NCBI GenBank assembly: GCA_049999805.1
Contig: JBNGIO010006235.1
Span: forward strand, 86,430 to 123,102
Direction of reading: 5' to 3'
From: Folioceros fuciformis
Lineage: Eukaryota
DNA length: 36,673 nucleotides
Both the position numbers and the translations under genes were made by a program. Every line of letters begins with the position of its first letter. Positions within the stretch are counted from its first letter, which is position 1. Shown here in pieces: positions 6,101-34,029 of this stretch. Below the pieces are notes generated by a model, which had not been told where the DNA came from, made no database searches, and saw only the letters and a list, made by a program, of their open reading frames with translations.

Positions 6101-7307
6101 CATTATGTCAAGGCGGCGAGTTCCTTGTCTTGACTCCTATTTTGATAAGGTATGTTTTGTGGTTTTGCGACTGCAGCAATCAAGTGTTTGCATTTACGCT
6201 TACTTGGAGCAATTGGTTGTGTCACTCAGGCAAATCTTCTTCTGTGGCCACGGTTTAAGGTTGTGTTTGATATGCACCTAAACAGTTTACGAACTGCAAC
6301 TCCCCGCACTCTGTGGGAAGATGATGTGCATCCGCACTACGTGTTCCGGCGATATGCAGAATTTGCTGCATCTCTGCTGCAGCTCAACATCGACTATGGT
6401 GATGGTCAGGTGCGTTTGCGCACACACGGGATGGCTGTTGTTACATGTAACTGTCGTCTGATCTTGATTCACCTACAGCTAGAGTTAAATTTGGAGCGCC
6501 TCCGGGTGGCTGTGGATGACTTGTTGGTGAAGCTCGCCCGCATATTTCCAAAGCAAAAGCAACAGAGTGTCTTCCTCATCAACAACTATGACATGGTGCT
6601 GACAGTCTTGAAGGTAGTGACGTAACAGTGAGACTGTGTGGACAGTGTTAATGGAGTTCGAGGTGCTAACATCCGGTCTCATGCCGCAGGAAGCTGGCGT
6701 TGAAGGGGGAAAGACACAGCAGCAGTTTGAAGAGTTATTGAAGAGCAGCACCACGGTTTTTGTGGTAGGACGAGATTAATACGCTTTTCTTAGTCGCGTG
6801 TTTTGGAGCAGTTAGAAACGTTGGTAAGACAGGTGTATGTGGCTCTTCCGCAGGAGGAAGAACTGAAGGAGCACTTCCAGAAGATGATACAGTTCGTGAA
6901 AACGAGAGCTGGTAAGTGCACGCAGTGATGCGACCTGCGAGATATGCAATGCGTTTATTGTGTTTGACCTCTTGCTGGCTTTCCGAACAGGTGACAGCTC
7001 TAGCGCAACGTCCAGTGCGGCTGGCTCACAGCCTATCACTCTACAGGATGTGGAGCCGTTGGTGAAAGATTTTGCCAAGAGATGGAAGGGTGCCATCGAG
7101 CTGATGCACAAGGATGTGATAACGTCATTCAGCAACTTTTTGTGTGGCATGGAGATATTGCGAGCGGCGCTAACTCAGCTGCTTCTCTACTACACTCGCC
7201 TTTCCGATTGTTTGAAGCAAGTTGGTGGAGGAGAGGCACTGGGCAAGGACGTTGTTTCCATAGCCTCCATCATGTACGAAATCAAGAAATATTCGCGAAC
7301 ATTCTAG
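3138..7307 (+). CDS. VPS52: Vacuolar protein sorting 52, GARP complex subunit (about 20 coding exons; gene span given)
   Basis: Spliced exons (e.g. 3138-3344, 3422-3513, 3592-3649, 3727-3822 ... 6991-7307) give SLEGLQEEL, LRKPKTNIQILQQ, PYEVLFRSLHKLLMDTATSEY, LWPRFKVVFDMHL, LWEDDVHPHYV and C-terminal SIMYEIKKYSRTF*, matching plant VPS52/POK as I recall it. Canonical GT-AG introns. Confidence 0.95.
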
Positions 7308-7982
7308 AGCCGGCCTGTGTTTCCTCACTCGTAAGTTTCCTCTTCCGGTGGCCGCGTGCTGCTGTCTACCTAGTGGTCTCGGAACAATTCAAGATACGCG
7401 GCGAGAAAGATGAGCAGATCGGGAACGTCGCGAGCGGACCGCTGGGCGGCGCCTTATCTTTCAGAACTTGAGCAATGCATCTTCGAGGGCCTCGCTACCA
7501 GACTACACAGAGGTCACTTTGCCATACTGGTCTTGAGCCAGGGTGTCCAGAAGGTTATGAAGCCTCACTCCTGACTGCCTAATGGTCTCAAGTTTATGGA
7601 AGATGATTTTTTTCCTTTCATCGCGTTCTCGTGTGTGAAGTCTCCAATTACAGCGACATTCATGTTGCTCAAGCATCAGGCATAACAGCGTGTAACGGAG
7701 AGGTTAAGCTCGTGTGTTAACTGGGTCACCGGGCAAGGTCGATTTGTCCTCCGTAGTCCGTGAAGCCCTGTGCATGCACCAGACGTACAGGCTTGCAGGG
7801 TCCTGACGGCCAGTCTCCAACTATGGATTGGGGCTTGTTAAGGAGAGTGTCCGAATGTTGACCCGCCCGTGATCTGATCCAGTACCAAACTACCATGACA
7901 CGAAACCAGCTTGGTCGTCTCTTCAACCAATGCGTACCATTGCAATACCATTACTGGGTTGTAGTGTGCTCTTCCCTTCTTC

Positions 7983-10900
7983 TCACGGTCGACCCTTGCA
8001 ACTGCAAGAACCAGCTGCGAATCGATGCACACGGTATCCATCTCTCACAACTATGTCCCTCTGTTCAAGCCTTGACATGATCTCAGTGGAACTATGGCAG
8101 TCACTGCACATGCGTAGGTTCTTCGTCACCACCAGGGGTGTCCCACTCGGAGTGTTCAACAGGCCAAACGCAAGAGCTAGTTTCTCAGCATGCCCACACA
8201 GCGCATCTTCCTTTTCCTGCTCAGACAACGGCTTCAACACCAACTTGGTGTGAGGTAAGTGGCCTCCTTCCTGCTTCACACGTGCGTTCGTGCTCTCCAG
8301 CTTGAGAGCGATATCCTCCCTCTTTTCCCCCACCAGAAATCGATGTACCTGCCTGTTCACCTCAATGGTGGTAACTGCGGGTTTCTTGTTCGCTCCTGAA
8401 ACCTTTCTCTGTGTTTCGATCCTGTCTACATCCATCCACCTGCCTGCGTCTGCGTAGGCATTGGCCATGAGCACATGCGCAGACGCATTCTGAGGGTCCA
8501 CCTTCACGATGCGTTCGAAACAACATATCGCCCTCTCTATGTCCCCGTAGCTTTTGGAGGCACTCAACAGAGTCGTCAAGCCCACAATGTTACAGTCACT
8601 TTCAATGGCCTCACATGATGATAGCATCCTCTCGGCCTCACCTAGACGGCCTGCACGCCCAAGAAGATCAACCATGCAGTTGTAATGCTCAGGAGTGGGC
8701 TTGATGCCGTGCTGGTCAGCCATGGAATCAAAGAGACTGCGACCCTCGTCGACCAGTCCCTCGTGACTGCATGCTGCTAGAAGGGAAGTGAAAGTAGCAC
8801 CGTCAGGCTGAATACCAGCAACTAGCATCTCCTCAAAACAAGCTAGTGCCTTGTGACCTTCATCACAAGAGCCGTACCCAGATATCAGGGCGGTCCATGT
8901 CACCACATCCTTTCTGTCCATGCAGTCAAAAACCTGACGTGCATCTTCCAGTTCTCCATATTTCGCATACATGTCCACCAGGCAGGTGCCCAACACTGCG
9001 TTTTTCAGCAGACCTTTCTTGACGATCAGCGAGTGCAGTTGCCTGCCCTTCTGCAGCGCACCACTGCTTGCACAGGCTTTCAGAAGGCAAGCAAAAGTAA
9101 CCCCGTCCGCAAGAATGCCCTCCTGCTCCATTCGTCCGTACAGGGCGAGTGCCTCATGTCCGAGCCCTTGCTGGGTATACCCAGCTATTAGGACATTCCA
9201 TGTCACCACATCCTTTGTGTTCACGCTGTCAAAAACCTGGCGTGCTTCCTCCAGTTCACCACACCTTGCATACATGTCCACCAGGCAGGTGCCTAACACT
9301 ACGTTATCCAGCAGCCCTCTTTTGACGATCTGTGAGTGCAGCTGCCTGCCCTCCCGCAAGGCACCAGTGCTTGCACAGGCCTTCAGAAGGCAACCATAAG
9401 TAACATGGTTAGCCAGAATCAGGCCCTCCTGCTCCATTCGTCCATACAGAAGAAGCACCTCTTGGCCAAGCCCTTGCTCGGCATAGCCTGCTATTAGAGT
9501 TGTCCATGTCACCACATCCTTCGTGCTCATGCCGTCAAAAACCTGGCGTGCGTCTTCCAGTTCACCGCATTTTGAATACATGTCCAACAGGCAGTTGACC
9601 ACCTGTACGTTCTCCATCAGTCCTCTTTCAATAATCTGTGAGTGAAGCTGCCTGCCCTTCTGTAAGGCACCGCTGCTTGCACAGGCATTCAGAAGGCAAG
9701 CAAAAGTGACATGGTTAGCCAAAGTCAGCCCCTCCTGCTCCATTTGTCCGTACACAGCTATTGCCTCGTGTCCCAGACCTTGCTGGGAATACCCAGTTAT
9801 CAACACCGTCCATGTCACCACATCCTTCGAGGCCATGCTGTCAAAAACATGGCGTGCATCTTTCAGTTCACCACATTTTGCATACATGTCCACCAGGCAG
9901 TTGCCAACAAACAAGTTAGTAGACATGGCACTCTGCACCACATCGCAGTGCAATTTCCTGCCCGATTCCAAGTCGGCGGCTAATGCGCAAGCTTGAAGGG
10001 CAGCTACGAAGACGTGGGCATCCGCCTTCACTCCTGACCTGCGCATCTCGTGGTACAGTTGTATGGCCTCATCAGGTTTCCCATGCTTAGCGTACGCGGA
10101 GATCATCGAAGTCCACATGAAGACATCCGGTTTGGGCACCCTGGTGAACGCATCCATCGCCTCCTGCAGCATACCTCCAGATGCATACATGCGCAAGATA
10201 TGGTTCCCCAAGTATGCCTTCAAATTGTACCCAAGTTTAACAGTGAGTTTGTGAACTCGTCGGCCCACAACCATATCCTTCTGCTCTCTACACAGTTTCA
10301 GCACACTGTAAAACAGAGACGGAGAAATGGCAGAGTCTGTCTCCACCAGAGATTCCAGGGCTACAAGAGCCTCACAAAGCTTCCCCTGCTGACATAGCAT
10401 GCTCACGGTTCCAGCCGTTACGACGCCCATTTCCGATCCTTCCCGCCTGCTAAGTTGGGGCTTACACCGAGAGCGCGACTTGGATGGAGAGCCACCATGA
10501 CCCATCTTCACATTCAAGGAAACGAGCTTCTCATCAACCCAAGCAGGCTTGAACGTGTTGTTTAACCACAGGACCTCGCCGGACCCCTTTCGCCGGAAGT
10601 CAGGCGAACCTGAGCTCTTCTTATCTCGTCTGTTGTCCCACCACATAGTGGGTTCCATAAAAAGATGTTGCCACAAGTGCTCGTGTTCCTCCCGGAGATC
10701 ATCGTTGGAAAACCTAGCCGTACCCACACTTTTGATCGGAAGTGGCAGTGCTGGGCTTGTTACACTGCTGCACCTGGCGCCCATCCCCGATCTATCATGC
10801 CTGCCAGATTCAGGCTTACCCGGCGAGCTGCACTCGGAAAGAGCGACACCTTGACCCATCTGCATATCCAAGGAGAGGAGCTGCTCATCAACCCAAGCTG

Positions 10901-11264
10901 GCTTAGACACATTGTCCAACCATAGCACCTCGCCAGACCCCTTACGTCGGAAGTCAGGCGAACAGGAGCTCTTCTTATCTCGTCTGTTGTCCCACCACAT
11001 GGTCGGGTCCAGAAAAAAATGTTCCCACAAGCGCTCCTGCTCCCTCTCCTGCTCCTGGCAGCCACCATCGCTTGAAAGCCCGTTCCCACCCACCCCTATC
11101 CGGTGAACTGGAAGTGCTGGGCTCCTTAAGCTGCTGCACCTGGGGGCTTTGCTAGCCACGAGTAGAGTCCCTACAGGAAGGTGACCGGGAGCGTCTGGTA
11201 GAATCCGTGTACACACCCGAATATGTTGGGTCCACAACGATTCCGGTTGCCACACTGCGGCCAT
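7983..11264 (-). CDS. PLS-class PPR protein, 1093 aa, intronless: 2 PDF-like motifs, about 17 PLS motifs, E1-E2, DYW:KP (GRP-ending) domain; candidate U-to-C RNA-editing factor
   Basis: Repeating P/L/S motifs (DVVTW..LI.GY, VTF.CLL.ACA, LVDMYAKCGELEDAR.VFD), then KKPAVTTIEV, CGHAEKLALAFG, KNLRMCSDCH and terminal CSCKGRP*. N-terminal WWDNRRDKKS..SPDFRRKGSGEVLWL occurs twice. Confidence 0.95.
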   Translation of the reverse strand: MAAVWQPESLWTQHIRVCTRILPDAPGHLPVGTLLVASKAPRCSSLRSPALPVHRIGVGGNGLSSDGGCQEQEREQERLWEHFFLDPTMWWDNRRDKKSSCSPDFRRKGSGEVLWLDNVSKPAWVDEQLLSLDMQMGQGVALSECSSPGKPESGRHDRSGMGARCSSVTSPALPLPIKSVGTARFSNDDLREEHEHLWQHLFMEPTMWWDNRRDKKSSGSPDFRRKGSGEVLWLNNTFKPAWVDEKLVSLNVKMGHGGSPSKSRSRCKPQLSRREGSEMGVVTAGTVSMLCQQGKLCEALVALESLVETDSAISPSLFYSVLKLCREQKDMVVGRRVHKLTVKLGYNLKAYLGNHILRMYASGGMLQEAMDAFTRVPKPDVFMWTSMISAYAKHGKPDEAIQLYHEMRRSGVKADAHVFVAALQACALAADLESGRKLHCDVVQSAMSTNLFVGNCLVDMYAKCGELKDARHVFDSMASKDVVTWTVLITGYSQQGLGHEAIAVYGQMEQEGLTLANHVTFACLLNACASSGALQKGRQLHSQIIERGLMENVQVVNCLLDMYSKCGELEDARQVFDGMSTKDVVTWTTLIAGYAEQGLGQEVLLLYGRMEQEGLILANHVTYGCLLKACASTGALREGRQLHSQIVKRGLLDNVVLGTCLVDMYARCGELEEARQVFDSVNTKDVVTWNVLIAGYTQQGLGHEALALYGRMEQEGILADGVTFACLLKACASSGALQKGRQLHSLIVKKGLLKNAVLGTCLVDMYAKYGELEDARQVFDCMDRKDVVTWTALISGYGSCDEGHKALACFEEMLVAGIQPDGATFTSLLAACSHEGLVDEGRSLFDSMADQHGIKPTPEHYNCMVDLLGRAGRLGEAERMLSSCEAIESDCNIVGLTTLLSASKSYGDIERAICCFERIVKVDPQNASAHVLMANAYADAGRWMDVDRIETQRKVSGANKKPAVTTIEVNRQVHRFLVGEKREDIALKLESTNARVKQEGGHLPHTKLVLKPLSEQEKEDALCGHAEKLALAFGLLNTPSGTPLVVTKNLRMCSDCHSSTEIMSRLEQRDIVVRDGYRVHRFAAGSCSCKGRP

Positions 11265-12393
11265 AGCTCAGGAAACCTGTCCAAAGATGAGAGCCAAACA
11301 ACCTACTACTGCAGGATGCCCTGGGTACTACCACGCCGTACGGGCTCACAAGGATGAGCCCGAACCCGGAACCGAAGGGCCTGCACGAAACGTCTACCAT
11401 GGATGTGAACGCCTATGCAACTTTTTGCCTCCTTTCCCACTCCGTTTGGACACAGAAGCAAAGGAGCTCTCATCCAACTTCCACTGTGAGACAGGACAAC
11501 CTAACGAATCGGTGGGTAAAGCGTTTCCACAGGGACCTCCGTTTCCGGCTAGGTTCCCTCTAGGATCTTTCCCTGGCCAATAAAGTGTCCATAACACAAT
11601 GTCGTGAGGGGCAAGGTAGTAGCGGGGCCACAATCATCCAAATCCACCAACTCCGTGGAATGTGCCACCCATTCATGAGGAGCAGGAGGAAGTCACAAGA
11701 ACATTGATTCATGCTGAAGAGGATACCAATTCATGGGGCATTTGTGAAATATGGCATGCAAGAGCAGGCACTGATCATCTCCCTCATTGCTTAGGGAGGG
11801 GAGACAGGAGGATTAGGAAGTTTCAAGAGCAGGCATTGATCCTTGAATCCTTGAGTGAGTAAGTAGATATGCTTTTGTCTTGTATCAACTTGTCCCTGGG
11901 AACTACTTGCATACCTATTCGTTATATAAATATAAATATAAACTATGAAATTTATTTTAAGGAATGCTTCTTTCACTTCGTCTTCTGCCATTCTTGGCTT
12001 TTCCCTATTGCGTGTTGTTCTCCTTGTCACGAGGTAGATGGATGGAACTTCCATCTCTTTTTTTTCTATTAAGTCTTTAGATTCCACCTTCGTCTTCTGT
12101 GAATATGGTTAAGCACAGAATTCATTGCAGTGAAAGGCGCTAAACTTTGAGGTAAGGACGTTTCTCTAACATGCACTACCCGTGTGTTTTGAATGTGAGT
12201 GGGTGTGCAGCTGATTACAAAAATCATCCCAATGGCATAAAACGCGGTTTCTGAAAACCGTTGAATGGGAGTGAGGTGAGGACAGCCTGCATTCCTGTGT
12301 GGAACGTCCAGTCCTCGTTTACACCAAGTGTCGCTGCATTGTTCCTCATGGTGACTTCCCGAGTTCCTGCCGGTGTGATTTCCCGAGGAGGAG

Positions 12394-14338
12394 ATGACGA
12401 CTTTCTCGGACGATGAGGATTGGGACGATCCATCGTTTCTGTCGCAGCTGGAGGCTGCGGAAGCTGAAGGAGTGAGGCGGCTGTCGCAGCAGGGGGATGG
12501 AGACCGTTCTTCCTACAGCAAGAGGAAGCGGCAGAACACGCCGGGGGCCGCTGAATTCTCCCCGCAGGAAGATTATGGAAGGGAGCGCAGTGAGGACAAG
12601 GCCTCAACGACTCTGATAGCTGAGGAGGAAGGGGACTACACGACTGCGCTCAAGGGGAGCAAGAGTGCCAAATGGGAGTCCAAGGTGTCTGCTCCTCGTG
12701 GCACTGCCTACGAGGGGGGCTCTAATCGGGCAGCAGAGAGCTATGGAGGTTCCGGATCGCGTCAGCAATCCGGGGTGGTGCCGGAGAGGCCGTGTCCTTG
12801 CGGGGCCGGCTTGTGTAATGTGCTCACGGCGCGGACTGAGAGGAACATGGGAAGGAGGTTTTATACGTGTCCGAAAGGCAAGGTGAGGAGGTTTTTGTGA
12901 AATTTTGGTGTTTTGTTGTTGAATGATCTGTACGTCGTGCTGCAAAGCTTACGGAGTTTGTGGCGGTGTTCTGGAGGAGTAGGATGAAGGCTGTGGTTTC
13001 TTTGAATGGTGTGAAATTGGAGGAGGCCAAGGGCATTCCAAAGATCTCCAGACTCAGAGTGCGGGTACAGGAGACTCCGGCTGGTCTGCAGATCGGATTT
13101 CACAACCTCAGATGGATTGCCCTTGTGGCGCAGGCGCCTGCTTAGTGTTTACGGCCAAAACCGAGAAGAACTGTGGACGGATGTTCTACCGTTGCCCTAA
13201 CTCGAAGGAGGTTGGTTGGTGTAGATGATTTTTCGCTTGCCCTCTCTTGTTGAGTCAGTTTGCTTCCTTGCCATGATTTTCATGAAGCTAGAGGAGTCAC
13301 CTCATGCATGAAGCTAAAGGAGTGAATGAGGCTAGAAGCGTGCATGAAGCTNNNNNNNNNNGCATGAAGCTAAAGGAGTGAATGAGGCTAGAAGCGTGCA
13401 TGAAGCTACAGGATTGACCTCCTGGGTTTTCTTTTTTTCTGGATTTGCAGAAGTCTTGTAATTTCTTCAAGTGGTGCGATGAAGAATCCTCTACAGCCAG
13501 TCGAGGATCTTCTGGTGGAGAGTTCAGTGGTAGGCAGGGTGTAGCGCACCAGAGTCCAATGACAGCTGGTTACCTAGGCTTTGGTGGTTCCGGTGGCTAC
13601 CATGGTGCAGGTGCAGACCATAAGAGTTTTCCGGCAGGTCATGCAGGATTCAGTAGTCCAGGCGGCGGAGGTGCGACCACGGGGAATTGCTTCACTTGTG
13701 GACAGAGCGGACACTGGTCAAAAGACTGTCCGCAGCAAAGATCCACGAGCACGTCTGGAAGGCAAGGTGGTGATGAGAGTGCAGGTGCAGCTGGTCATGC
13801 AGGCTTTGATGGGGGAGGTGGACACAGCGGGAACTGCTTCAACTGTGGACAGACCGGACATTGGTCGAAAGACTGTTCACGACAAAGGAACACGAGCACC
13901 TCTGCCGTGCAAGACGGTGGGCCAAGGTTTGGAACCCAGGAAGACAATTCAGGAAAGACCAGCGGTGCCTGTTACGCTTGTGGTCAACCAGGTCACTGGG
14001 CTCCCAATTGCCCTCTTCGGATATCTCCTAGTAAGCCACGGACTAGCCCTAGTTCTAGATCCCTTCCTAGTTCTAGAAGCGCAGGCGCACAGAACACTGG
14101 GAGCATGCCATCTTCGGGAGGACGAGGCGGTTCTTGCTATAAGTGTGGGCAACCAGGGCACTGGGCTCCAGACTGTGGCAATCCTTCTCCAGCTAAGAGT
14201 CAAAAGGCTAGTCGTAGCCCTAATGCCAAAAACACGTGCTATAAGTGTGGGAAACAGGGTCACTGGGCTCCAAACTGCCCGTCGAGGGGCTCCCCGTCGA
14301 AGAAGAGTTCAGGCTACGGAAGGGGACGCAACAGTTGA
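12394..14338 (+). CDS. GRF zinc finger (x2) / CCHC zinc knuckle (x5) nucleic-acid-binding protein; exons 12394-12882, 12983-13210, 13451-14338
   Basis: CPCGAGLC...NMGRRFYTCP..GCGFFEWC and CPCGAGAC...NCGRMFYRCP..SCNFFKWCD are joined in frame by phase-0 GT-AG introns. Five CX2CX4HX4C knuckles follow (CFTCGQSGHWSKDC etc.). Confidence 0.9.
13306..13408. repeat. 36-bp intronic repeat flanking a 10-N assembly gap (13352-13361)
   Basis: gcatgaagctaaaggagtgaatgaggctagaagcgt occurs on both sides of the gap. Confidence 0.8.
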
Positions 14339-17221: not shown

Positions 17222-19618
17222 ATGGCGGCTGTCTCGACCGGACGCACTGTGGTGGTGGGTTGCAATGCCAGCCGCGGCCTGCAGCAGGGGCATCCCCAGT
17301 TTGTGCCTTTGGGGCTGGGAGTGGGAGTGGGCTCAGCGGGAGGAGCTCGACGATGGCGGCGGCAGCAGAAGCAGCAGAAGCAAAAGCAGCAGCTGCAGCA
17401 GCTGCAGCAGCAACAGCAACATCAGCAACAGCGGATGCAGGTTCGCGCAGTGCTGGACAAGCCGAGTCTGCCTCCGGCAGAAAGCGGGCAGGGGGATCCG
17501 GTGCGGGAGGCCCTGGAGCGCCTGTTCCAGCGGCGCCCTGCAGCCGGGGAATCTGAGAGCCGGGCCCTAGAGGTTGCAGTGAACGCCCTTGAGGTGGATC
17601 TGAACGAAGCCCTGGTGGCGTTGCGGAGCAAGGAGGAGGAGCTCCGGGCGGCCGAGAAGGCGCTCAAGGCGGACCAGTGGGAGGTGCAGATGTCCCGCGC
17701 CGAGCTGCACAAATGGGAGCAGGAGCTTATGGCTGTACGCTCTACCTACGACGACAAGAAGACGGAAGTGAATCGGTCCCAGAAGCGGCTGGCTGCGCAG
17801 GCTGGGGAGCTGCAGAAGGCCAAGCGGATGCTGCAGGAGCGGGAGTCTGAGATAGGGGTGGCGCAGGCCGCCCTCGGGGTGAAGGAGAAGGAGCTGAAAA
17901 GGCTCCAAGGCGTGGTCAAGGAGAAGGATGTGGAGCTGGCGATGGTCGCCGAGGCGCTGAAGACGAAGGATGTGGAGTTGCGGGGAAGCATCAAGACCGT
18001 GAAGGAGCAGTCGACGGGGATGGAGAGAATGCGAGCTGTGATGCAGGAGCAGGAGCAGACTGTGCTGTCGCTGGAGCGGGAGCTGAAGGAGAAGGAGGTG
18101 GTGTTGGATAAGACGGCGAGGGAGTTGGAGGGGAAGGTTGTGGCCTGGCTCCAGGCTGGGGAGGAGATCAAGCGGCTGGAGGCGGAGGTGCGGGGCCAGC
18201 GGGAAGGCGGGGAGGAGGCGAGGCGGGAGGTGGCTATGGCGAAGGCTGTGTTGAAGGAGGTGGAGGGAGAGCTGCGGGAGAGCCAGAGGTCTGTGGCCAC
18301 GTTCAAGAACGTGGTTGAGGAGCAGCGGGGGAAGCTCGGGCGGCAGGGAGAACTGTTGCGGGAGCAAAAGAAGACTATCAAAGCTCAGGCGGAGCAGCTG
18401 GAGGCTAGCGTGAAGCGGCTGGCGGAGGCCAGGGAGGAGGTGCAGTCATGGCAAAGCGCGTACAAGGCCCTGGAGCTGAGGCTGGAGGAGGAGAAGAAGG
18501 GGGCCGGGGTTGTGAAGATGGAGCTGGTCCGGGAGCGAGAGGCTCTGGCGATGGCTGTGAAGGAAGTGAAGGAGTTGAAGGCGGAGCTAGGGTTGCGGGA
18601 GAGGGAATTGGTGAAGGTGAATGCCGCTTTGCAGGCGAAGGAAGTGGAGTTGGAGGCGAGCAAGACGGAGATTGAGGAGTTGAAGTTGGAGTTCGCGGAT
18701 GTGAGGCGCGCAGTGGAGGATAAAAGCCAGGAGCTGGCTGTGGCGGAGAGGCGGATTAAGGGGTTGGAGATGGAGGTGGCGGAGGTGCGGGCAGTCCTCA
18801 AGAGCAAGGAGCATCAGCTTGCGGGGACAATGCTTGCTTTGCAGGAGAAGGACGACCAGATGGTGCTTATGCAGGGAGATTTGCAGGAGAGCCAGATGCG
18901 GCTGGCGGAGGCTACCTCCGTGGTGGAGCAGATCAGCTCCTTGTCCAGGCTGCTGGTGGAGTCGTCTTCTTCCATGGGGCTTTCCCCAGCGAGGTCGGAT
19001 GAAGGCTCGCTGCTCATCCAGGCCAACTGTGACGTGTTCGCTGCGAACCGCGCACTGCTGGAGACGGAGCTGCAGCTGCAGCGGCTGTACGAGCAGTCCG
19101 TGGGGAATGAGCTGCGGATGAAGGAGGTGGAAGCTGAGCTGGAGGCCGTGAAGGAGTGTTTGAAGGAGAAGAACGAGGAGCTGCTGAACGCGCAGCGAGC
19201 TTTGGTGATGAAGGAGCAGGAAGTGAGACCCTCCGTTGTGGCCGCGTTGCAGCTGACTCGGCTGGAGGATTCGGGGATGCAGGCGGAGCCGGCGACAACG
19301 GAGGTGGAGAAGCTGGAGCTGGAGCTGGCCAAGCTCGAGGCCGAGACGGCCATGTCTGCCTTGCACAGACTAGCTGAATTGAGCCAAGAGCTGGTGGCCT
19401 CGGCAAGCACGGGCGAGCCCGCCATGGTTGCCGCGCGGTCCAGCGTTGTCGAGACGGGGCCTAACCTCTCCAGGCTGCTGAGCCACGTGACTGGCATCCA
19501 CAACGGGGACGCTGCCCTGGAGATCATGGGGGGCGCCATGGCCGGCCTCGCCAACCTCGCACGACAGCTGGTGCTGGATGCAGGGATCGATCTCTCCTCC
19601 GAGCCTGTGCCGGCGTAG
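17222..19618 (+). CDS. PII1: Plastid coiled-coil protein, Protein Involved in starch Initiation 1 / MRC homologue (intronless; ATG at 17222)
   Basis: Transit-peptide-like N-terminus ending VRAVLD, then ALERLF, LEVDLNEALVALRSKEEEL, WLQAGEEIKRL, EKLELELAKLEAETAMSALHRLAELSQEL and LVLDAGI, colinear with Arabidopsis PII1/MRC as I recall it. Long heptad coiled coil. Confidence 0.8.
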   Translation: MAAVSTGRTVVVGCNASRGLQQGHPQFVPLGLGVGVGSAGGARRWRRQQKQQKQKQQLQQLQQQQQHQQQRMQVRAVLDKPSLPPAESGQGDPVREALERLFQRRPAAGESESRALEVAVNALEVDLNEALVALRSKEEELRAAEKALKADQWEVQMSRAELHKWEQELMAVRSTYDDKKTEVNRSQKRLAAQAGELQKAKRMLQERESEIGVAQAALGVKEKELKRLQGVVKEKDVELAMVAEALKTKDVELRGSIKTVKEQSTGMERMRAVMQEQEQTVLSLERELKEKEVVLDKTARELEGKVVAWLQAGEEIKRLEAEVRGQREGGEEARREVAMAKAVLKEVEGELRESQRSVATFKNVVEEQRGKLGRQGELLREQKKTIKAQAEQLEASVKRLAEAREEVQSWQSAYKALELRLEEEKKGAGVVKMELVREREALAMAVKEVKELKAELGLRERELVKVNAALQAKEVELEASKTEIEELKLEFADVRRAVEDKSQELAVAERRIKGLEMEVAEVRAVLKSKEHQLAGTMLALQEKDDQMVLMQGDLQESQMRLAEATSVVEQISSLSRLLVESSSSMGLSPARSDEGSLLIQANCDVFAANRALLETELQLQRLYEQSVGNELRMKEVEAELEAVKECLKEKNEELLNAQRALVMKEQEVRPSVVAALQLTRLEDSGMQAEPATTEVEKLELELAKLEAETAMSALHRLAELSQELVASASTGEPAMVAARSSVVETGPNLSRLLSHVTGIHNGDAALEIMGGAMAGLANLARQLVLDAGIDLSSEPVPA

Positions 19619-19781
19619 TACGCATGTTTGTCTTTCTGTACTATAATGTCGGAGCGCGGCTGTGTAAATTGTTTGATTTTGGCTGCAGTCTGGAGGGTTG
19701 TTTATTTACTTGTAATAGTATTTATCTAGAATCAGTTATACGCTAGGTATAACCATATGTACTTAAATGTACGTTTTCTTG

Positions 19782-20272
19782 TCAAGCTTCTCTGAATTGC
19801 CTCTCTGCTGGTGGTAGGCTGGAGAAAAGGGCTGGAGATACGCAGGTACTTCTGTATGTCGTGGCTTCAGTGAAGCTAAATATGCGGTGTGTTTTAAAGT
19901 GCGCTAAGGTAGGATAGTGCCTGAGGGACCGTATCTTGGCCTCCTTGCGTTGTGGAACACGCACTTACGAGAAATGCATGATTTCACTTGTTCAGTCCAC
20001 GGAATGGCCTGATCCACATCTCTAGACAACGACGGACAAGTCTTCTCCGGCAGTAAGGGGTCTTGCGAGGAAGACGTAACTTTCAAGCTACATGCCCCAT
20101 TCTGCATCTGAAGGTGGATATATCACTGGTCGAAGGATTCTAGAAGAGAATGTGAACAACAAGATCTGACTGGCGATGGTCCGCTCTTCCGAAACTTGAA
20201 GCCTCTTACATACTTGCTACCTGTCAGGATATCTGGTGTATCCATAAACCTTGCATCTCGAATCAGATCCAT
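19782..20272 (-). CDS. Possible small 4-exon hypothetical protein (about 90 aa)
   Basis: Exons 20272-20214, 20139-20092, 20021-19969 and 19903-19782 join in frame through GT-AG introns of 74, 70 and 65 bp. No family recognised; the last acceptor is ambiguous. Confidence 0.4.
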
Positions 20273-26409: not shown

Positions 26410-26700
26410 ACATTGTGGATGGTGAAGAAACAAAGTAGAAACCAAAAAAAATTTCTTTTAGTTTCTTCATGAGTCCATTGAAGTAACAATGATCGAGGAG
26501 AAAAAAACTTTGTACTCTATGGCAGCTCGTGATGTGATGTGGAGCCCAAAAATCTAGATGGAAGATTCCATAGAATATTCGCGTAAATATATTATTGAAA
26601 AAAATTTAATAAGGGTCGCATGTCCGTATTCGTATTTAATATTTAAAAGCTCTTAATAGATGAAACATTGCCTGCTAAGCAATCAAGGTTTGAATGTGCG

Positions 26701-29700
26701 ATGTGTGTGCGAAGCTACGCACAGATGGTGAATGGAGTTGAAACGATTGCCTGCGTTTTGAGTCGTGAAAAACTGACTTGCATGAAAACCACGGACGGAG
26801 GCTGGAGACTGCACCAAGCCTGGGTGGAGGCACTGAGTCAGGATATGCAAATTGGTTGTCCATCTCTCGGGACGGAGGATGGTGTTCATGGGATGTCTGA
26901 AGGAAACAAATGCAGCGTCACGCCTGAAACCGTGAACGAGCTATGTAGTGGGAGCCAGCTGGCTGAGGCTGTTGAGGCTCTGGGAGTTCTGGTGCAGACT
27001 GATTGCTGTGATCTGAGGACGGGATTTTACACTGTCTTGAAGGAATGCGCAGGCCAGAAGGATCTGGTTCTGGGCCGCCGCGTCCATGCTTTCGCGGAGA
27101 GACGGGGCTATCAGTCGGATACGTTCCTGGGCAACCATATCCTGCGGATGTATGCTTCTCATGGCAAGTTGCAAGAAGCGATGGACGTGTTTGCGGTGGT
27201 GGTGGAACCTGATGCATTCACGTGGTCTGCCATCATTTCTGCCCATGTTAAACATGGGCATGACAGGGAGGCCATCGAGCTTTACCGTCGGATGCGTAGG
27301 TCGAGTGTGAAGCCAGATGGCCGGGTGTTTGTGGCAGCTCTGCAGGCGTGTGCAAGGGAATCGGACTTGGAAACTGGGCAGCAGGTGCATACCCACATCT
27401 TGGCGAGTGGGGTTGAGCCTGTTCTTTTTGTGTGGAATAGCTTGGTGAACATGTACTCGAAGTGTGGGAGCTTGGGAGAAGCGAGGAGAGTGTTCGACGG
27501 ACTTGGGGTGAAGGATGTGGTGACTTGGACTGCCATGATAGCAGGATATGCCCAGCAGGGCATGGGGCAGGAAGCCCTTCGTCTGTACAGTCGGATGCAG
27601 GGAGGGGGCATGACCGCTCCCAATTCCGTGACGTTTGTGTGCCTCCTGCAGGCTTGTGCGAGTGTGGGTGCCCCCGCTTTGGAGGAGGGGAGGCAGCTTC
27701 ATGAGCAGATCAGGAGACTGGGACATGAGGAAGATGCTTTTGTGGGCAACAGTTTGGTTAACATGTATGCCAAGTGTGGGAGCTTGGAGGATGCTCATAG
27801 AGTGTTCGATGGCCTTGGGAGAAAGGATGTGGTGACGTGGAACGTCATGATCGCAGGGCACTCCCAGCAGGGTATGGGGGAGGCAGCCCTTCGTCTCTAT
27901 ACGGCTATGCAGGAACGAGGTACAACTGTACCTGATTCTGTGACATTCTTGTCGCTCCTGCAGGCGTGTGCAAGTGTGGGTCCCCCAGCTTTGGAGATAG
28001 GGAAGCAGCTCCATACACAAATTAAGGTGCAAGGACGTCAAGCGGATAGGTTTGTAGCCAACAGCTTGGTGAACATGTACGCAAAGTGTGGCAGCTTGGA
28101 GGATGCGAAAAGGGTCTTCCAAGGACTTGGTCAAAGGGATGTGGTGACATGGAATGCCATGATAGCAGGGTTATCTCAGCAGGGGATGGCCCAGGAAGCT
28201 CTTCGCCTTTATGATGATATGCAAGACGAAGGCATCTCCGTTCCTAGTTCCGTGACGTTTGTGTGCCTCCTGCAGGCATGTGCAGCCGTGGGCACCCCTG
28301 CGTTGGAGACGGGAAAGCAGCTCCATGCGCAGATTAAGGAACAAGGACATGAAGCTGACGTTTTTGTTGCCAACAGTTTGGTAAACATGTACGCAAAGTG
28401 CGGCAGTGTGAGAGATGCTCAGAGACTGTTTGACGGAATCGCTTGTAAAGATGTGGTGATGTGGAATGCCCTGATAGCAGGATATTCCCAGCAGGGCATG
28501 GGGCAGGAAGCCCTTTGTATGTTTAGTGCTATGCAAGAAGAAGGCATGGCTCTACCTGATGCTGTGACATTCGTTTGTCTCCTGCAGGCATGTGCAAGTG
28601 TGGGCACCATGGCGTTGGAGAAGGGGAGGCACATCCATACGCAGATAAGAGAACGTGGATTTCAAGCTGATGTATTTGTAGCCAGCAGTTTGGTAAACAT
28701 GTATGCCAAGTGTGGCAGTCTCGAAGATGCTCAGAGAGCGTTCGATGGACTTGGTCAGAAAGACGCGGTGACATGGACTGCCATGATAGCCGGGTATTCC
28801 CAGCAGAACATGGGCCAGGAAGCCCTGCGTCTTTACAGCGCGATGCAGGAAGAAGGCATTGCCGTTCCTGATGCTGTGACATTTGTGTGCCTTCTCCAGG
28901 CCTGTGCAGATGTGGCAGCTTTGCATGTGGGAAGGCAGCTACATGTGCAGATTGGGCAACAAGGGCTCCAAGCTGATTCTTTCGTAGGCGGCAGTCTAAT
29001 AAACATGTATGGAAAGTGTGGGAGTATGGTTGATGCGCACCAGGTTTTTGATGCGCTGCCCGAGAGAGACGTCGTTGCCTGGAGTGCGCTTATTGCTGGC
29101 TACACCTGTCAAGGTGACTGTAATGTCGTCTTTGACTTGTTCCAGAAGATGGGGGAGGATGGTATTCTGCCAGTTGGCATCACATTCCTTAGCGTGCTCA
29201 CGGCATGCAGCCATGCAGGTCTAGTGAACAAGGGAAGAGAGTACTTTGAGGCCATGAGCGGGCAGTATGGCATCAGTCCCACGGTGGAGCACTATATATG
29301 CATGGTGGATCTCCTGGGCCGTGCAGGTCAACTGGATGAGGCCCTAGCTCTGATAAGGACAATGCCTTTCCTGCCCAATGCTCCAGTGTGGCATACTCTG
29401 ATGAGTGCTTGTCGAAAGTGGAGCAACACGGAGGTGGGAAAATACGCTTTCGACCAAGCAGTGAAGGTAGACAGCAAAGATGATGCAGCATACATGATGA
29501 TGTCAAACATGTATACCTGTGTACAGATGTCTGAGGAGGCACAGAAGCTGCAGGAGAGGAGGACGAGGATCAGTGCAGGGAAGCAACCAGGTCAGAGCTG
29601 GTGGACAGACACAAACGGAGTGGTGCATAGTTTTTTGGTCGGGGATGAGAAGCATATCAAGAGTCAAACAAGGCTGAACGATGTGTACTCCCAAGTAAAT

Positions 29701-29910
29701 GAGGAATATGTGTCATTTCCGGACTCGTCAATGGCAGACATATTTGATAGTATGAATGACCGATCATGTGAGAAGCTGGGGACTACCAAAAGCATCACCA
29801 GATTTGCTGCTGGTAGGGCTTGGTTATCAAACTACCACCAAAAACCTCTTGGCAGTAACGCAGTGAACTATCTGCTGGGTTTCAAGTTGGTTACATGTAT
29901 ACAAGGGTGA
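26701..29910 (+). CDS. PLS-class PPR protein, intronless, about 23 motifs, E1-E2 and an eroded WW-type DYW tail (first in-frame ATG 26701; true start uncertain)
   Basis: Regular P-L-S triplets; L2 ITFLSVLTACSHAGLV; S2 EHYICMVDLLGRAG; KQPGQSWWTD..VVHSFLVGD. HxE and CxxC zinc ligands are missing. Confidence 0.92.
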   Translation: MCVRSYAQMVNGVETIACVLSREKLTCMKTTDGGWRLHQAWVEALSQDMQIGCPSLGTEDGVHGMSEGNKCSVTPETVNELCSGSQLAEAVEALGVLVQTDCCDLRTGFYTVLKECAGQKDLVLGRRVHAFAERRGYQSDTFLGNHILRMYASHGKLQEAMDVFAVVVEPDAFTWSAIISAHVKHGHDREAIELYRRMRRSSVKPDGRVFVAALQACARESDLETGQQVHTHILASGVEPVLFVWNSLVNMYSKCGSLGEARRVFDGLGVKDVVTWTAMIAGYAQQGMGQEALRLYSRMQGGGMTAPNSVTFVCLLQACASVGAPALEEGRQLHEQIRRLGHEEDAFVGNSLVNMYAKCGSLEDAHRVFDGLGRKDVVTWNVMIAGHSQQGMGEAALRLYTAMQERGTTVPDSVTFLSLLQACASVGPPALEIGKQLHTQIKVQGRQADRFVANSLVNMYAKCGSLEDAKRVFQGLGQRDVVTWNAMIAGLSQQGMAQEALRLYDDMQDEGISVPSSVTFVCLLQACAAVGTPALETGKQLHAQIKEQGHEADVFVANSLVNMYAKCGSVRDAQRLFDGIACKDVVMWNALIAGYSQQGMGQEALCMFSAMQEEGMALPDAVTFVCLLQACASVGTMALEKGRHIHTQIRERGFQADVFVASSLVNMYAKCGSLEDAQRAFDGLGQKDAVTWTAMIAGYSQQNMGQEALRLYSAMQEEGIAVPDAVTFVCLLQACADVAALHVGRQLHVQIGQQGLQADSFVGGSLINMYGKCGSMVDAHQVFDALPERDVVAWSALIAGYTCQGDCNVVFDLFQKMGEDGILPVGITFLSVLTACSHAGLVNKGREYFEAMSGQYGISPTVEHYICMVDLLGRAGQLDEALALIRTMPFLPNAPVWHTLMSACRKWSNTEVGKYAFDQAVKVDSKDDAAYMMMSNMYTCVQMSEEAQKLQERRTRISAGKQPGQSWWTDTNGVVHSFLVGDEKHIKSQTRLNDVYSQVNEEYVSFPDSSMADIFDSMNDRSCEKLGTTKSITRFAAGRAWLSNYHQKPLGSNAVNYLLGFKLVTCIQG

Positions 29911-31551: not shown

Positions 31552-34029
31552 ATGGACCTGTTGCTGGGGAAGTGTCTTGACATCCGACAAACTGGTGGCT
31601 TTGCTCACCAAGTTCACCTGAGACCCACGACGAGGGATTTCCTGCTTGGGGAGAAGATCGTGGAGAATGAGCTTTGGTGGGATCACCGACAACAAAAGAA
31701 GAATGCCCGTTGGCCTGACTTCCAAGAGGTCCTCCGGGTAAACAATTGGCACAAACCAGTAGCTGTCGGCATGCGAATGGGTCGTGGTATTTGTACGGGT
31801 CATGATTCTTCCAGGCCTGCAGGTGGAGTAACATCTGAGACAGTAAGCAGATTATGTGAGCAGGGACATCTAAGGGAGGCCGTCGAGGCTCTGGGAGTTC
31901 TGGTACAGACAGGTAGTCTGATTGCAGCGTCTCTGCTTTATGCTGTCCTTCAGAAATGTGTGGGTAAGAAGGACCTGGTTCTGGGTCGGCGCGTTCATTG
32001 TCTGAGCGTGAGAAGTGGGTATGAGTCGGACACGTTCTTGTGCAACCATATTCTTCGAATGTATTCTTCTCATGTCAGATTGCAGGAAGCGATGGACGTG
32101 TTCACCGTGGTTGCCACACCAGATGCCTTCACATGGTCTGCCATAATTTCTGCGCATGTCGCACACGGACACGACAAGCAGGCCATACAGCTGTATCAGC
32201 GCATGCGCAGGTCGAGTGTGAGGGCAGATGGGCACGTATTTGTGGCAGCCCTTCAGGCTTGCGCAAGAGGAGCAGACTTGAAATCTGGGCAGCAAGTGCA
32301 TGCGGATGTGCTGGCCAGTGGAGTTGAGCCTCATTTGTTTGTTTGGAATGGCTTGGTAGACATGTATGCAAAGTGTGGCTGTTTGGAAGAAGCTCAAAGA
32401 GTGTTTGACAAACTCGTTGAGAAAGATGTGGTGACTTGGAATGCCATAATTTCCGGATATTCCCAGCAGGGCATGGGCGAGGAGGCCTTTTGTCTGTACA
32501 GGGTTATGCAAGAAGGCAGCATGGCTGTACCCAATTCTGTGACATTTGTGTCCCTACTGCAGGCATGTGCAAGTGTGGGTGCCCTGGCTTTGGAGAAGGG
32601 GAAGCAGCTACATGCACAGATTCGGGACAGAGGCCTTCAAGCTGATGTGTTTGTAGGGAGCAGTTTGGTCACCATGTATGCAAAGTGTGGTTGCCTGGAC
32701 GATGCTCGGAACGTGTTTGACTGTCTTCAAGAAAAAAATGTGGTGACTTGGAGTGCCATGATAACAGGCTACTCCCAGCACGGCATGGGGCAGGAAGCCC
32801 TTCAAGTTTACAACGAAATGCAGGAAGAGGGCATTGTTGTACCGAATGCTGTCACATTTATGTGTCTTCTTCAGGCATGTGGAATCGTTGGGCCACCGGC
32901 TCTAGAGAAGGGGAAGCAACTTCATGCACAAATTAGAGAGCGAGGACTTCAAGGGGACATGTCCGTATCCAACAGTTTGGTAACCATGTATGCAAGGTGC
33001 GGTAGCCTAGAGGATGCCCGGGGTCTCTTCCATGGACTCGTCGAGAAAGATGTGGTAACGTGGAATGCCATGATAGCAGGATACTCCCAGAACGGCTTGG
33101 GGCTGGAAGCCCTTGATCTCTACAGGGCTATGCAAGAGGGAAGCACGGCTGTACCAGATTCTGTGACATTCGTTTGCCTCCTGCAGGCTTGTGCAGATGT
33201 GGCAGCTTTGCATATTGGAAGGCAGCTTCATGCGCAAATCAAAGAACGCGGGCTCCAAGCTCATGTGTTTGTAGCCAGCAGTTTGATAGACATGTATGCA
33301 AAGTGTGGGAGCATGGTTGACGCACAGCAGGTATTTGACGCTTTACCCGAAAAGGACGACATCACCTGGAATGCACTGATTGCTGGGTACACTTGTCAGG
33401 GACACAGTGACGAGGTATTTGACTTGGTTCACAGAATGAGAGGCGAGGGCATACAACCTGTTGGGATCACATTTGTGTGTGTACTGACAGTATGCAGTCA
33501 TGTTGGTCTAGTGAAGAAGGGGCGAGAGTACTTTGAGGCTATGAGCAGACAGTATGGCATCAGTCCCACAGTGGAGCACTACACATGTATGGTGGATATC
33601 CTGGGTCGCGCAGGCCATGTCGATGACGCAATAGCTTTGGTTAGGGCAATGCCTGTGCAGCCTGATGCTGCAATGTGGAGCACTGTACTGAGTGCCTGTC
33701 GGAAGTGGAGCAATCTGGATGTGGCACGTCATGCTTTTGAGGAAGCAGTGAAGCTGGACAAGCAAGATGCCGGATCATACGTGTTGATGTCGACGATATA
33801 TTCAGGTGCCGAGATGTGGGAGAAGGCTCAGGAGACGCAGGATAGGAGACTAGGAAGTGGGGCATGGAAACAGCCAGGGCAAAGCTGGTGGACTGACCTG
33901 GACGGGTTAGTGCATGGTTTTAGGGTTGGGGCTAAGATGCATACCGGAGTGGAAGCGAGGCTGAGACCTGAGTGTCTGTTGAGGGATCAGTTTACGGGGA
34001 GTAAGGCCAGGCTGAACCAGGCTTCATAA
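31552..34029 (+). CDS. PLS-class PPR protein, 825 aa, intronless, about 17 motifs, E1-E2, truncated shortly after the WW-type box; degenerate PDF motif at the N-terminus
   Basis: Close paralogue of 26701-29910. KQPGQSWWTDLDGLVHGFRVG is followed by a stop about 33 aa later. N-terminal LWWDHRQQKKNARWPDF. Confidence 0.92.
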   Translation: MDLLLGKCLDIRQTGGFAHQVHLRPTTRDFLLGEKIVENELWWDHRQQKKNARWPDFQEVLRVNNWHKPVAVGMRMGRGICTGHDSSRPAGGVTSETVSRLCEQGHLREAVEALGVLVQTGSLIAASLLYAVLQKCVGKKDLVLGRRVHCLSVRSGYESDTFLCNHILRMYSSHVRLQEAMDVFTVVATPDAFTWSAIISAHVAHGHDKQAIQLYQRMRRSSVRADGHVFVAALQACARGADLKSGQQVHADVLASGVEPHLFVWNGLVDMYAKCGCLEEAQRVFDKLVEKDVVTWNAIISGYSQQGMGEEAFCLYRVMQEGSMAVPNSVTFVSLLQACASVGALALEKGKQLHAQIRDRGLQADVFVGSSLVTMYAKCGCLDDARNVFDCLQEKNVVTWSAMITGYSQHGMGQEALQVYNEMQEEGIVVPNAVTFMCLLQACGIVGPPALEKGKQLHAQIRERGLQGDMSVSNSLVTMYARCGSLEDARGLFHGLVEKDVVTWNAMIAGYSQNGLGLEALDLYRAMQEGSTAVPDSVTFVCLLQACADVAALHIGRQLHAQIKERGLQAHVFVASSLIDMYAKCGSMVDAQQVFDALPEKDDITWNALIAGYTCQGHSDEVFDLVHRMRGEGIQPVGITFVCVLTVCSHVGLVKKGREYFEAMSRQYGISPTVEHYTCMVDILGRAGHVDDAIALVRAMPVQPDAAMWSTVLSACRKWSNLDVARHAFEEAVKLDKQDAGSYVLMSTIYSGAEMWEKAQETQDRRLGSGAWKQPGQSWWTDLDGLVHGFRVGAKMHTGVEARLRPECLLRDQFTGSKARLNQAS

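Follow-up and report, generated by a model that had tools for sequence, protein, structure and literature searches.

The 36,673-nucleotide stretch of Folioceros fuciformis DNA considered here in its entirety (contig JBNGIO010006235.1 of assembly GCA_049999805.1, positions 86,430 to 123,102 of the forward strand; hereafter the window) carries on its minus strand an intact gene for a PLS-class PPR-E-DYW:KP protein of the GRP subtype, predicted to act as an organellar RNA-editing factor, in which two copies of the PDF motif known from the OSB proteins, which bind single-stranded DNA in organelles, stand ahead of the repeats. The listing of open reading frames (ORFs), together with Pfam, gives the order of parts in this protein, labelled P0001, as presequence, two PDF motifs, PLS-PPR array, E motif and DYW:KP domain (Table 1). 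Pfam recognizes 12 PPR stretches (E 4.7e-92; for PPR_2, E 1.1e-87), forming a tandem PLS array that runs into an E motif, the arrangement by which PLS-class editing factors are recognized; residues 1-295 stay without any match at a cutoff of E<=1. The array comprises roughly 17 PLS repeats. The initial 66 residues resemble a presequence and, to judge from their composition, constitute a putative organelle-targeting peptide. A first-pass annotation of this DNA had placed the motifs in the same reading frame as the PPR-DYW:KP part, and a single ORF does hold both; its first ATG is preceded, two codons upstream, by an in-frame stop and carries G at both -3 (a purine) and +4. In-frame Met codons also occur downstream, for example at residues 254 and 281.

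By sequence comparison, the repeated N-terminal motif is a genuine PDF motif. Passages of PMC6963530 define this motif as about 50 residues with a conserved Pro-Asp-Phe signature; the two copies in P0001 are 52-57 residues long, and both have P-D-F at the conserved position. As a module of OSB proteins it spans roughly 55-65 residues. Residues 78-129 and 196-247 are identical at 42 of 52 positions, and both are copies of the pattern quoted when the region was first likened to OSB proteins. When residues 70-250 were compared by phmmer with 1.84 billion cluster representatives, the best 150 matches being listed, 573 matches reached E<=1e-3; of these, 134 reached E<=1e-10 and 16 reached E<=1e-30, counts that set the motif far beyond chance. 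The matches include proteins named by their sources as 'protein OSB1, mitochondrial-like' (Populus, Ananas) and, in Euphorbia peplus, as 'organellar single-stranded DNA binding protein 3' (OSB3), and Pfam SSB (PF00436), the OB fold of OSB proteins, was found in 43 of the 141 matches scanned. A hidden Markov model (HMM) made exclusively from OSB proteins, comprising seven motif instances from four proteins so named (two of Populus, one each of Euphorbia and Ananas) and run at Z=30000, matched both copies significantly and over nearly its full length: residues 77-133 with an independent E-value (i-E) of 1.7e-16 at HMM positions 3-58 of 59, and residues 193-248 with an i-E of 1.2e-15 at positions 1-55. 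In a six-frame scan the same HMM placed the motifs at 10866-11036 and 10521-10688, in good agreement with the range of 10524-11040 originally reported. Across the 134-sequence alignment of the family, R and D are invariant and W, P, W, D, K, P, F, L, W, P and W are conserved at 90% or more, and all 13 of these columns, read off the sequence, are kept in both copies. The OSB-only HMM, the named OSB matches and the conserved residues all agree, and the identification offered by the first-pass annotation is upheld.

P0001 itself is not an OSB protein, because it has no OB fold and its PDF motifs precede the other domains; Pfam detects no SSB/OB fold anywhere in P0001, and the domain order is not that of the OSB family. 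The PDB, searched by sequence with residues 70-250, offered nothing beyond chance-level matches, all to chlorophyll a/b-binding proteins and none with an E better than 0.036, and an ESM Atlas search with residues 60-260 yielded no usable match. An AlphaFold2 model of both motifs (181 residues, computed from the 134-sequence alignment) has predicted local distance difference test (pLDDT) values above 90 in each, and values below 50 in the intervening linker at model residues 71-78, 83-85 and 91-113; a model of one motif reaches a mean pLDDT of 93.1 and a predicted template modelling score of 0.79. In the model a long helix comes first, short strands follow near the segments WWDNR and PDF, and a helix closes the C-terminal end; the PDF motif is confidently predicted to be a small, compact helix-strand-helix module, folding independently. 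Foldseek comparison with the PDB gave no matches at E<=1e-3 for either model, and those at E<=10 (five for the two-motif and four for the single-motif model) were all to unrelated folds; the predicted PDF fold is without a solved relative in the PDB copy searched. The order of strands flanked by helices was also considered as a possible double-stranded RNA-binding domain, and this reading was set aside, no such domain being returned by either Foldseek search.

The two motifs lie within a direct repeat whose copies start 354 nt apart, as the period given in the first-pass annotation implied, and this repeat identifies the second PDF motif as the product of a 354-nt intragenic duplication. In a tree of PDF motifs the two P0001 copies are sisters, with a support of 96. 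The closest relative found, P0003, is a protein of 950 residues that also ends in GRP and has one PDF motif; from the second motif onward the two proteins are colinear, with 58% identity over 906 residues and 2% gaps. Since P0003 has a single motif and the P0001 copies are sisters, the duplication is younger than the split between these proteins. Split by segment, they are most alike in the DYW:KP domain (73% identity), followed by the motif (60%), the PPR array (58%), the E region (56%) and the linker (20%). A similar contrast between motif and linker emerges when the copies within P0001 are compared with each other: the ratio of non-synonymous to synonymous rates (dN/dS) in the motif core is 0.17 (12 synonymous and 11 non-synonymous differences at 31 and 125 sites, respectively) vs about 1.4 in the 29 codons of linker downstream of the motif. 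On this measure, both PDF copies have been kept under purifying selection since the duplication.

At its other end, P0001 carries the marks published for DYW:KP domains of the GRP type, in accord with the first-pass reading of this region as an editor domain. Pfam DYW_deaminase matches residues 1001-1091 (E 2.4e-32) over model positions 1-91 of 93. The last 133 residues open with KPA, in which KP replaces the PG box, contain the HxE...CxxCH signature as HAE and CSDCH, have K at domain position 88 (Lys88) and M at position 92 (Met92), and end with the triplet GRP instead of DYW. Passages of PMC9478123 describe three regions that separate DYW:KP from DYW:PG domains, Met92 as carried by KP domains, and two hornwort DYW:KP subgroups, GRP and DRH, named for their last three residues; in passages of PMC11845758 the KP domain is given a length of 132-133 residues and a conserved Lys88 essential for U-to-C activity. 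Designer GRP proteins, KP2 and KP3, are reported in the former source to perform U-to-C editing in E. coli at 26% and 22%, respectively. P0001 is, by sequence, a GRP-type DYW:KP protein and a candidate U-to-C editor, and its membership of this type points to an origin like that of hornwort genes.

The association of PDF motifs with PPR arrays recurs well outside this gene. Among the best 150 representatives listed, 10 combine an N-terminal PDF motif with PPR domains recognized by Pfam (4 of 8 long matches, 5 of the 141 matches scanned as a set, and P0002 from a precomputed Pfam list), and the short fragment P0137, an eleventh candidate, has a weak match to the PPR part. The motif occupies a characteristic place in such proteins, its median relative start being 0.10 in PPR proteins vs 0.60 in other proteins, as determined from 339 motif instances in 166 of 178 proteins, isoforms from cluster look-ups included. 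The named PDF-PPR proteins among the matches listed come from ferns and lycophytes only. Those of ferns are from Adiantum capillus-veneris (two genes, KAI5076972.1 and KAI5061374.1), A. nelumboides, Ceratopteris richardii (KAH7429238.1) and Pteridium aquilinum (EP00250_P017103), and those of lycophytes from Selaginella moellendorffii (XP_024517303.1) and Diphasiastrum complanatum (KAJ7570437.1). In all of these records the motif is unannotated and the name is simply 'hypothetical protein' or 'PPR-containing protein'. Their gene models stop after the E region, without a DYW domain, and the fusion is thus not specific to DYW:KP proteins. The RefSeq model of the S. moellendorffii protein (P0134/P0178) starts 6 residues before its PDF motif, leaving no room for a targeting peptide; either this model is short at its N-terminus or the protein departs from the usual mode of import.

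A search with the DYW:KP domain gave a complementary view. It returned 62 proteins, 21 of them with a KP-type domain and 41 with a DYW:PG-type ending. The PDF HMM scored in 3 of the 21, two ending in GRP and one in DRH, a figure that is a lower bound because several models begin within the PPR array, and in none of the 41; two further proteins, P0185 and P0181, show fragments of the motif when judged by eye. The architecture as first proposed stands. The fusion is neither unique nor confined to DYW:KP proteins, in view of the fern and lycophyte relatives and of the small share of KP-type proteins with the motif. In the motif tree (FastTree; 314 distinct motif instances, 61 columns) the PPR-linked motifs are clustered, requiring 9 label changes vs a mean of 16.7 after shuffling, with none of 500 shuffles as low. 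They do not form one supported clade in that tree, in which 24 of 311 branches were starred, and a single origin of the fusion is for this reason neither demonstrated nor excluded. Overall, the distribution looks like that of an old PDF-PLS-PPR lineage, represented in hornwort-like relatives, lycophytes and ferns, in which the motif would have been kept by some members while eroding in others.

PDF motifs were also encountered among the phmmer matches in five proteins of other kinds (P0051, P0057, P0004, P0013 and P0005). They comprise a kinesin model of Coptis chinensis (1526 residues), an 'Interactor of constitutive active ROPs 2' model of Striga hermonthica (1063 residues), and proteins with 9-13 PDF stretches and no credible Pfam domain, one from Kingdonia uniflora (1160 residues) and two unnamed. 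Some of these may be fused gene models.

Two further PLS-PPR ORFs lie on the plus strand of the window, which thus holds three PPR genes within 26 kb. The ORF at 31552-34029 encodes 825 residues with PPR and E motif matches in Pfam and stops shortly after a PG box, without most of the DYW domain. Near its start is a remnant of the PDF motif (tblastn E 9e-10 to P0001 residues 202-300; OSB HMM i-E 0.06), and the ORF may represent a truncated or degenerating paralogue. The other, at 26668-29910, has at its N-terminus a short stretch that by eye resembles the C-terminal end of the PDF motif; its PG box is followed by a degenerate DYW region lacking HxE and CxxC, in which Pfam finds no match to DYW_deaminase. 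Many contigs of runs X1, X2, X4 and X9 align to the PDF-coding region at 85% likeness or more, and at position 10911 between 7 and 14 contigs per run differ. This hints at several PDF-bearing paralogues per organism, although the contigs are short and may overlap.

Table 1. Features of the P0001 gene and of related PPR sequences in the window, with window coordinates.
Feature	Position	Strand	Basis or remarks
Complete coding sequence of P0001	7983..11264	minus	Intronless; 1093 residues plus stop codon; no internal stop
Putative organelle-targeting peptide, residues 1-66	11067..11264	minus	Composition: 5 R, 1 K, 7 S, 8 L, 3 acidic
PDF motif copy 1, residues 77-133	10866..11036	minus	OSB-only HMM; six-frame scan; AlphaFold2 pLDDT >90
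Linker between PDF motifs	10689..10865	minus	Predicted disordered; copies not conserved here
PDF motif copy 2, residues 193-248	10521..10688	minus	OSB-only HMM; six-frame scan; AlphaFold2 model
PLS-class PPR array, about residues 294-905	8550..10385	minus	Pfam PPR, PPR_1, PPR_2, PPR_3
E motif region, residues 906-960	8385..8549	minus	Pfam E_motif at 906-968, E 9.3e-17
DYW:KP domain, 133 residues, 961-1093	7986..8384	minus	Pfam DYW_deaminase and position counts
Direct-repeat span	10424..11043		Two 266-nt copies, 80% identical, at 10424-10689 and 10778-11043, 354 nt apart
Third PLS-PPR ORF	26668..29910	plus	1080 residues as listed from a TTG start; Pfam
Decayed PDF motif of second PLS-PPR ORF	31657..31767	plus	Two deletions; several conserved residues lost

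Pieces that are probably transcripts cover parts of the P0001 gene. Contigs of run X1 behave like spliced RNA, because they lack the GT..AG introns of neighbouring genes, and they match the gene with 0 differences at 11109-11440 (the start codon and 176 nt upstream of it), at 10188-10576 (the end of the second motif and the lead-in to the PPR array) and at 8151-8476. A convergent, spliced plus-strand gene at 6500-8006, with three GT..AG introns (6611-6688, 6763-6853 and 6910-6990), is likewise matched by an exact X1 contig, which ends at 8006 and runs over the final 24 nt of the coding sequence of P0001 on the opposite strand. Beyond the start of P0001 lies a spliced plus-strand gene at 12394-14338, to which contigs from all four runs align in separate pieces; Pfam matches one of its exons to a GRF zinc finger (E 3.2e-08) and finds five CCHC zinc knuckles (E 1.7e-36) in a later exon. 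Farther along, the segment 16001-20000 has a G+C content of 0.585-0.591 vs about 0.50 in neighbouring sequence, with a GC skew of +0.33 at 18001-20000.

Comparison with known systems indicates which features of P0001 are shared and which are distinctive. With OSB proteins it shares a motif of about 55 residues, homologous over its full length and with the W, WWDNR, K, PDF, LW and P.W positions in common, as well as its occurrence in one to several copies with variable linkers. P0001 differs from them in having no OB/SSB fold and in carrying its PDF motifs at the N-terminus, before the PPR array, whereas those of OSB proteins are C-terminal, behind an N-terminal or central OB-like domain. A recent census of OSB proteins (PMC13393729, 2026) retained, according to a passage of its methods, only proteins having both OB-like and PDF domains, and because both were required it would not report PDF-PPR fusions. 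With the GRP-subtype PPR-DYW:KP proteins, candidate U-to-C editors of hornworts of which KP2 and KP3 are designer versions, P0001 shares the PLS array, the E motif and the 133-residue DYW:KP domain; it differs in its additional N-terminal region of about 250 residues with two PDF motifs. The designer GRP proteins, as described in passages of PMC9478123, begin with the PLS array behind a tag, and most of the KP-type relatives found here, unlike P0001, have no intact PDF motif. The fern and lycophyte PDF-PLS-PPR proteins are alike in having one or two N-terminal PDF motifs followed by a PLS-type PPR array, and unlike in that their gene models lack DYW:KP and their motifs are 40-57% identical to those of P0001.

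A broader likeness is to those fusions in which a PPR RNA reader is joined to a second nucleic-acid-related module. PPR-SMR proteins, and PRORP with its NYN domain, are further examples in which an accessory domain accompanies the PPR part. PMC13386178 catalogues RRM-PPR and MORF-PPR fusions, and the term 'single-stranded' has no occurrence there, in a check not aimed at the PDF motif itself. A full-text literature search found no paper linking the PDF motif to a PPR protein, although supplements were outside its coverage and an earlier mention there is possible. The two papers found to contain both 'PDF motif' and 'PPR' do not bear on the matter, and a mention of PPR in PMC6963530 concerns RNA polymerases. 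The combination of these known domains thus appears to be undescribed, and it recurs across three plant lineages.

What the PDF motifs might contribute to such a protein is suggested by the geometry of PPR proteins. PPR arrays bind RNA in parallel orientation, with the N-terminal repeats contacting the 5' nucleotides and the DYW domain placed over the edited base, where the footprint has its 3' end. Given parallel binding, modules held on flexible N-terminal tethers would reach the strand 5' of the footprint. We therefore consider it quite possible, if somewhat short of probable, that the PDF motifs of P0001 serve as a sequence-independent auxiliary grip on single-stranded RNA. Each would be an independent small module on a flexible tether, binding single-stranded nucleic acid without sequence specificity and contacting the single strand 5' of the PPR footprint; such contact would increase affinity or lengthen the dwell time, and the target site would stay unfolded while U-to-C editing takes place. 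Conservation in the motif falls on aromatic and basic residues (W, W, D, R, K, P-D-F, W), as expected for single-strand contacts. In OSB proteins the PDF motif is stated to be both responsible and sufficient for binding of single-stranded DNA, with no contribution from the OB-like fold of OSB1 (passages of PMC6963530 and PMC6451138, both citing Zaegel 2006), and such binding is reported there for AtOSB1 and other OSBs.

Several observations weigh against this proposal. The predicted fold has no solved counterpart from which a mode of binding might be read. The motif is dispensable in many relatives, being detected in few of the KP-type proteins and surviving only as decayed remnants in the two PPR paralogues of the window. 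Run X1 is not on record as RNA, and among the longest pieces listed no contig spans 10576-11109.

The main rival, raised as a possibility in the first-pass annotation alongside RNA unfolding and action on ssDNA or R-loops, is that the motifs retain their OSB function and tether the editor to organellar DNA where it is single-stranded, for instance on the non-template side of the transcription bubble, in R-loops or in replication intermediates, which would concentrate it at nucleoids and make editing co-transcriptional. Single-stranded DNA is indeed the sole ligand reported for the PDF motif in passages of PMC6963530 and PMC6451138; the P0001 motif is 42-50% identical to OSB motifs and is matched by their HMM over its full length, much as OSB motifs resemble one another, and the long linkers, predicted to be disordered, would suit a reach from DNA to nascent RNA. 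We nevertheless regard a DNA tether as rather unlikely, since the motif has been lost from most related editors, which must function without a tether, and in OSB proteins it works in the context of a tetramer or OB fold (a passage of PMC6963530) that is absent from P0001. A less conservative version of the same idea would make PDF-PPR proteins an old, unrecognised class of editing factors, with named members only in lineages (hornwort-like, lycophyte and fern) that perform U-to-C editing, in which an OSB-type module couples the editor to the nucleoid and the DYW:KP domain acts on nascent RNA at transcription bubbles or R-loops, or even reaches the displaced DNA strand; this is a long shot.

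Erosion of the motif among relatives raises the alternative that it is a relic of an old OSB-PPR gene fusion, now being lost and contributing little or nothing. The graded series of decay, from the two deletions in ORF 31552 to the fragments seen by eye in ORF 26668, P0185 and P0181, fits such a history, as does the lack of an HMM match in 18 of the 21 KP-type relatives. In P0001, on the other hand, the motif has been duplicated, its near-invariant residues are all kept, dN/dS in the motif is a fraction of that in the linker, and its conservation between P0001 and P0003 equals that of the PPR array; its retention in lycophyte and fern PPR proteins further makes a mere relic improbable. We give still less credence to the notion that what the PDF motif recruits is not nucleic acid but a protein partner (another editing factor, an OSB or Whirly-type protein, or a further PDF motif). 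The modelled unit, small, compact, folding on its own and held by flexible linkers, would be suited to this, and editing factors of early-diverging plants, which lack MORF partners (passages of PMC13386178 describe MORF classes for angiosperms and gymnosperms only), could have room for another accessory contact; but no PDF-motif interaction is reported in the literature examined, and the conserved aromatic and basic residues are more typical of contact with nucleic acid. Least likely of all, by a slight degree, is that the motifs are absent from the mature protein, through initiation at one of the downstream Met codons or through removal with the targeting peptide, leaving an ordinary PPR-DYW:KP protein. 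The presence of these Met codons leaves some place for this explanation. It is opposed by the position and context of the first ATG, by the exact X1 contig that spans it, by coding-level constraint on both motifs, unexpected in untranslated sequence, and by the motif's shared N-terminal placement in relatives of several lineages; moreover, a presequence of about 250 residues, cleaved off with two folded modules inside it, would be unusual.

The usual picture of a PLS-PPR editing factor is a targeting peptide followed by a PPR array and E/DYW domains. To that picture, a conserved module for binding nucleic acid placed before the array would add a new accessory part, in lineages that have no MORF-type helpers. 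It extends the PDF motif, whose fold and mode of binding are unsolved, beyond the OSB family, and provides a concrete handle for asking if editing in organelles is physically linked to the nucleoid and to transcription, an open question. Paralogues in which the motif has decayed to different degrees supply natural comparisons of editors with and without it. Designer GRP editors, built without an N-terminal module, reach only about 22-26% editing in E. coli, and natural PDF motifs may be a possible addition to them.

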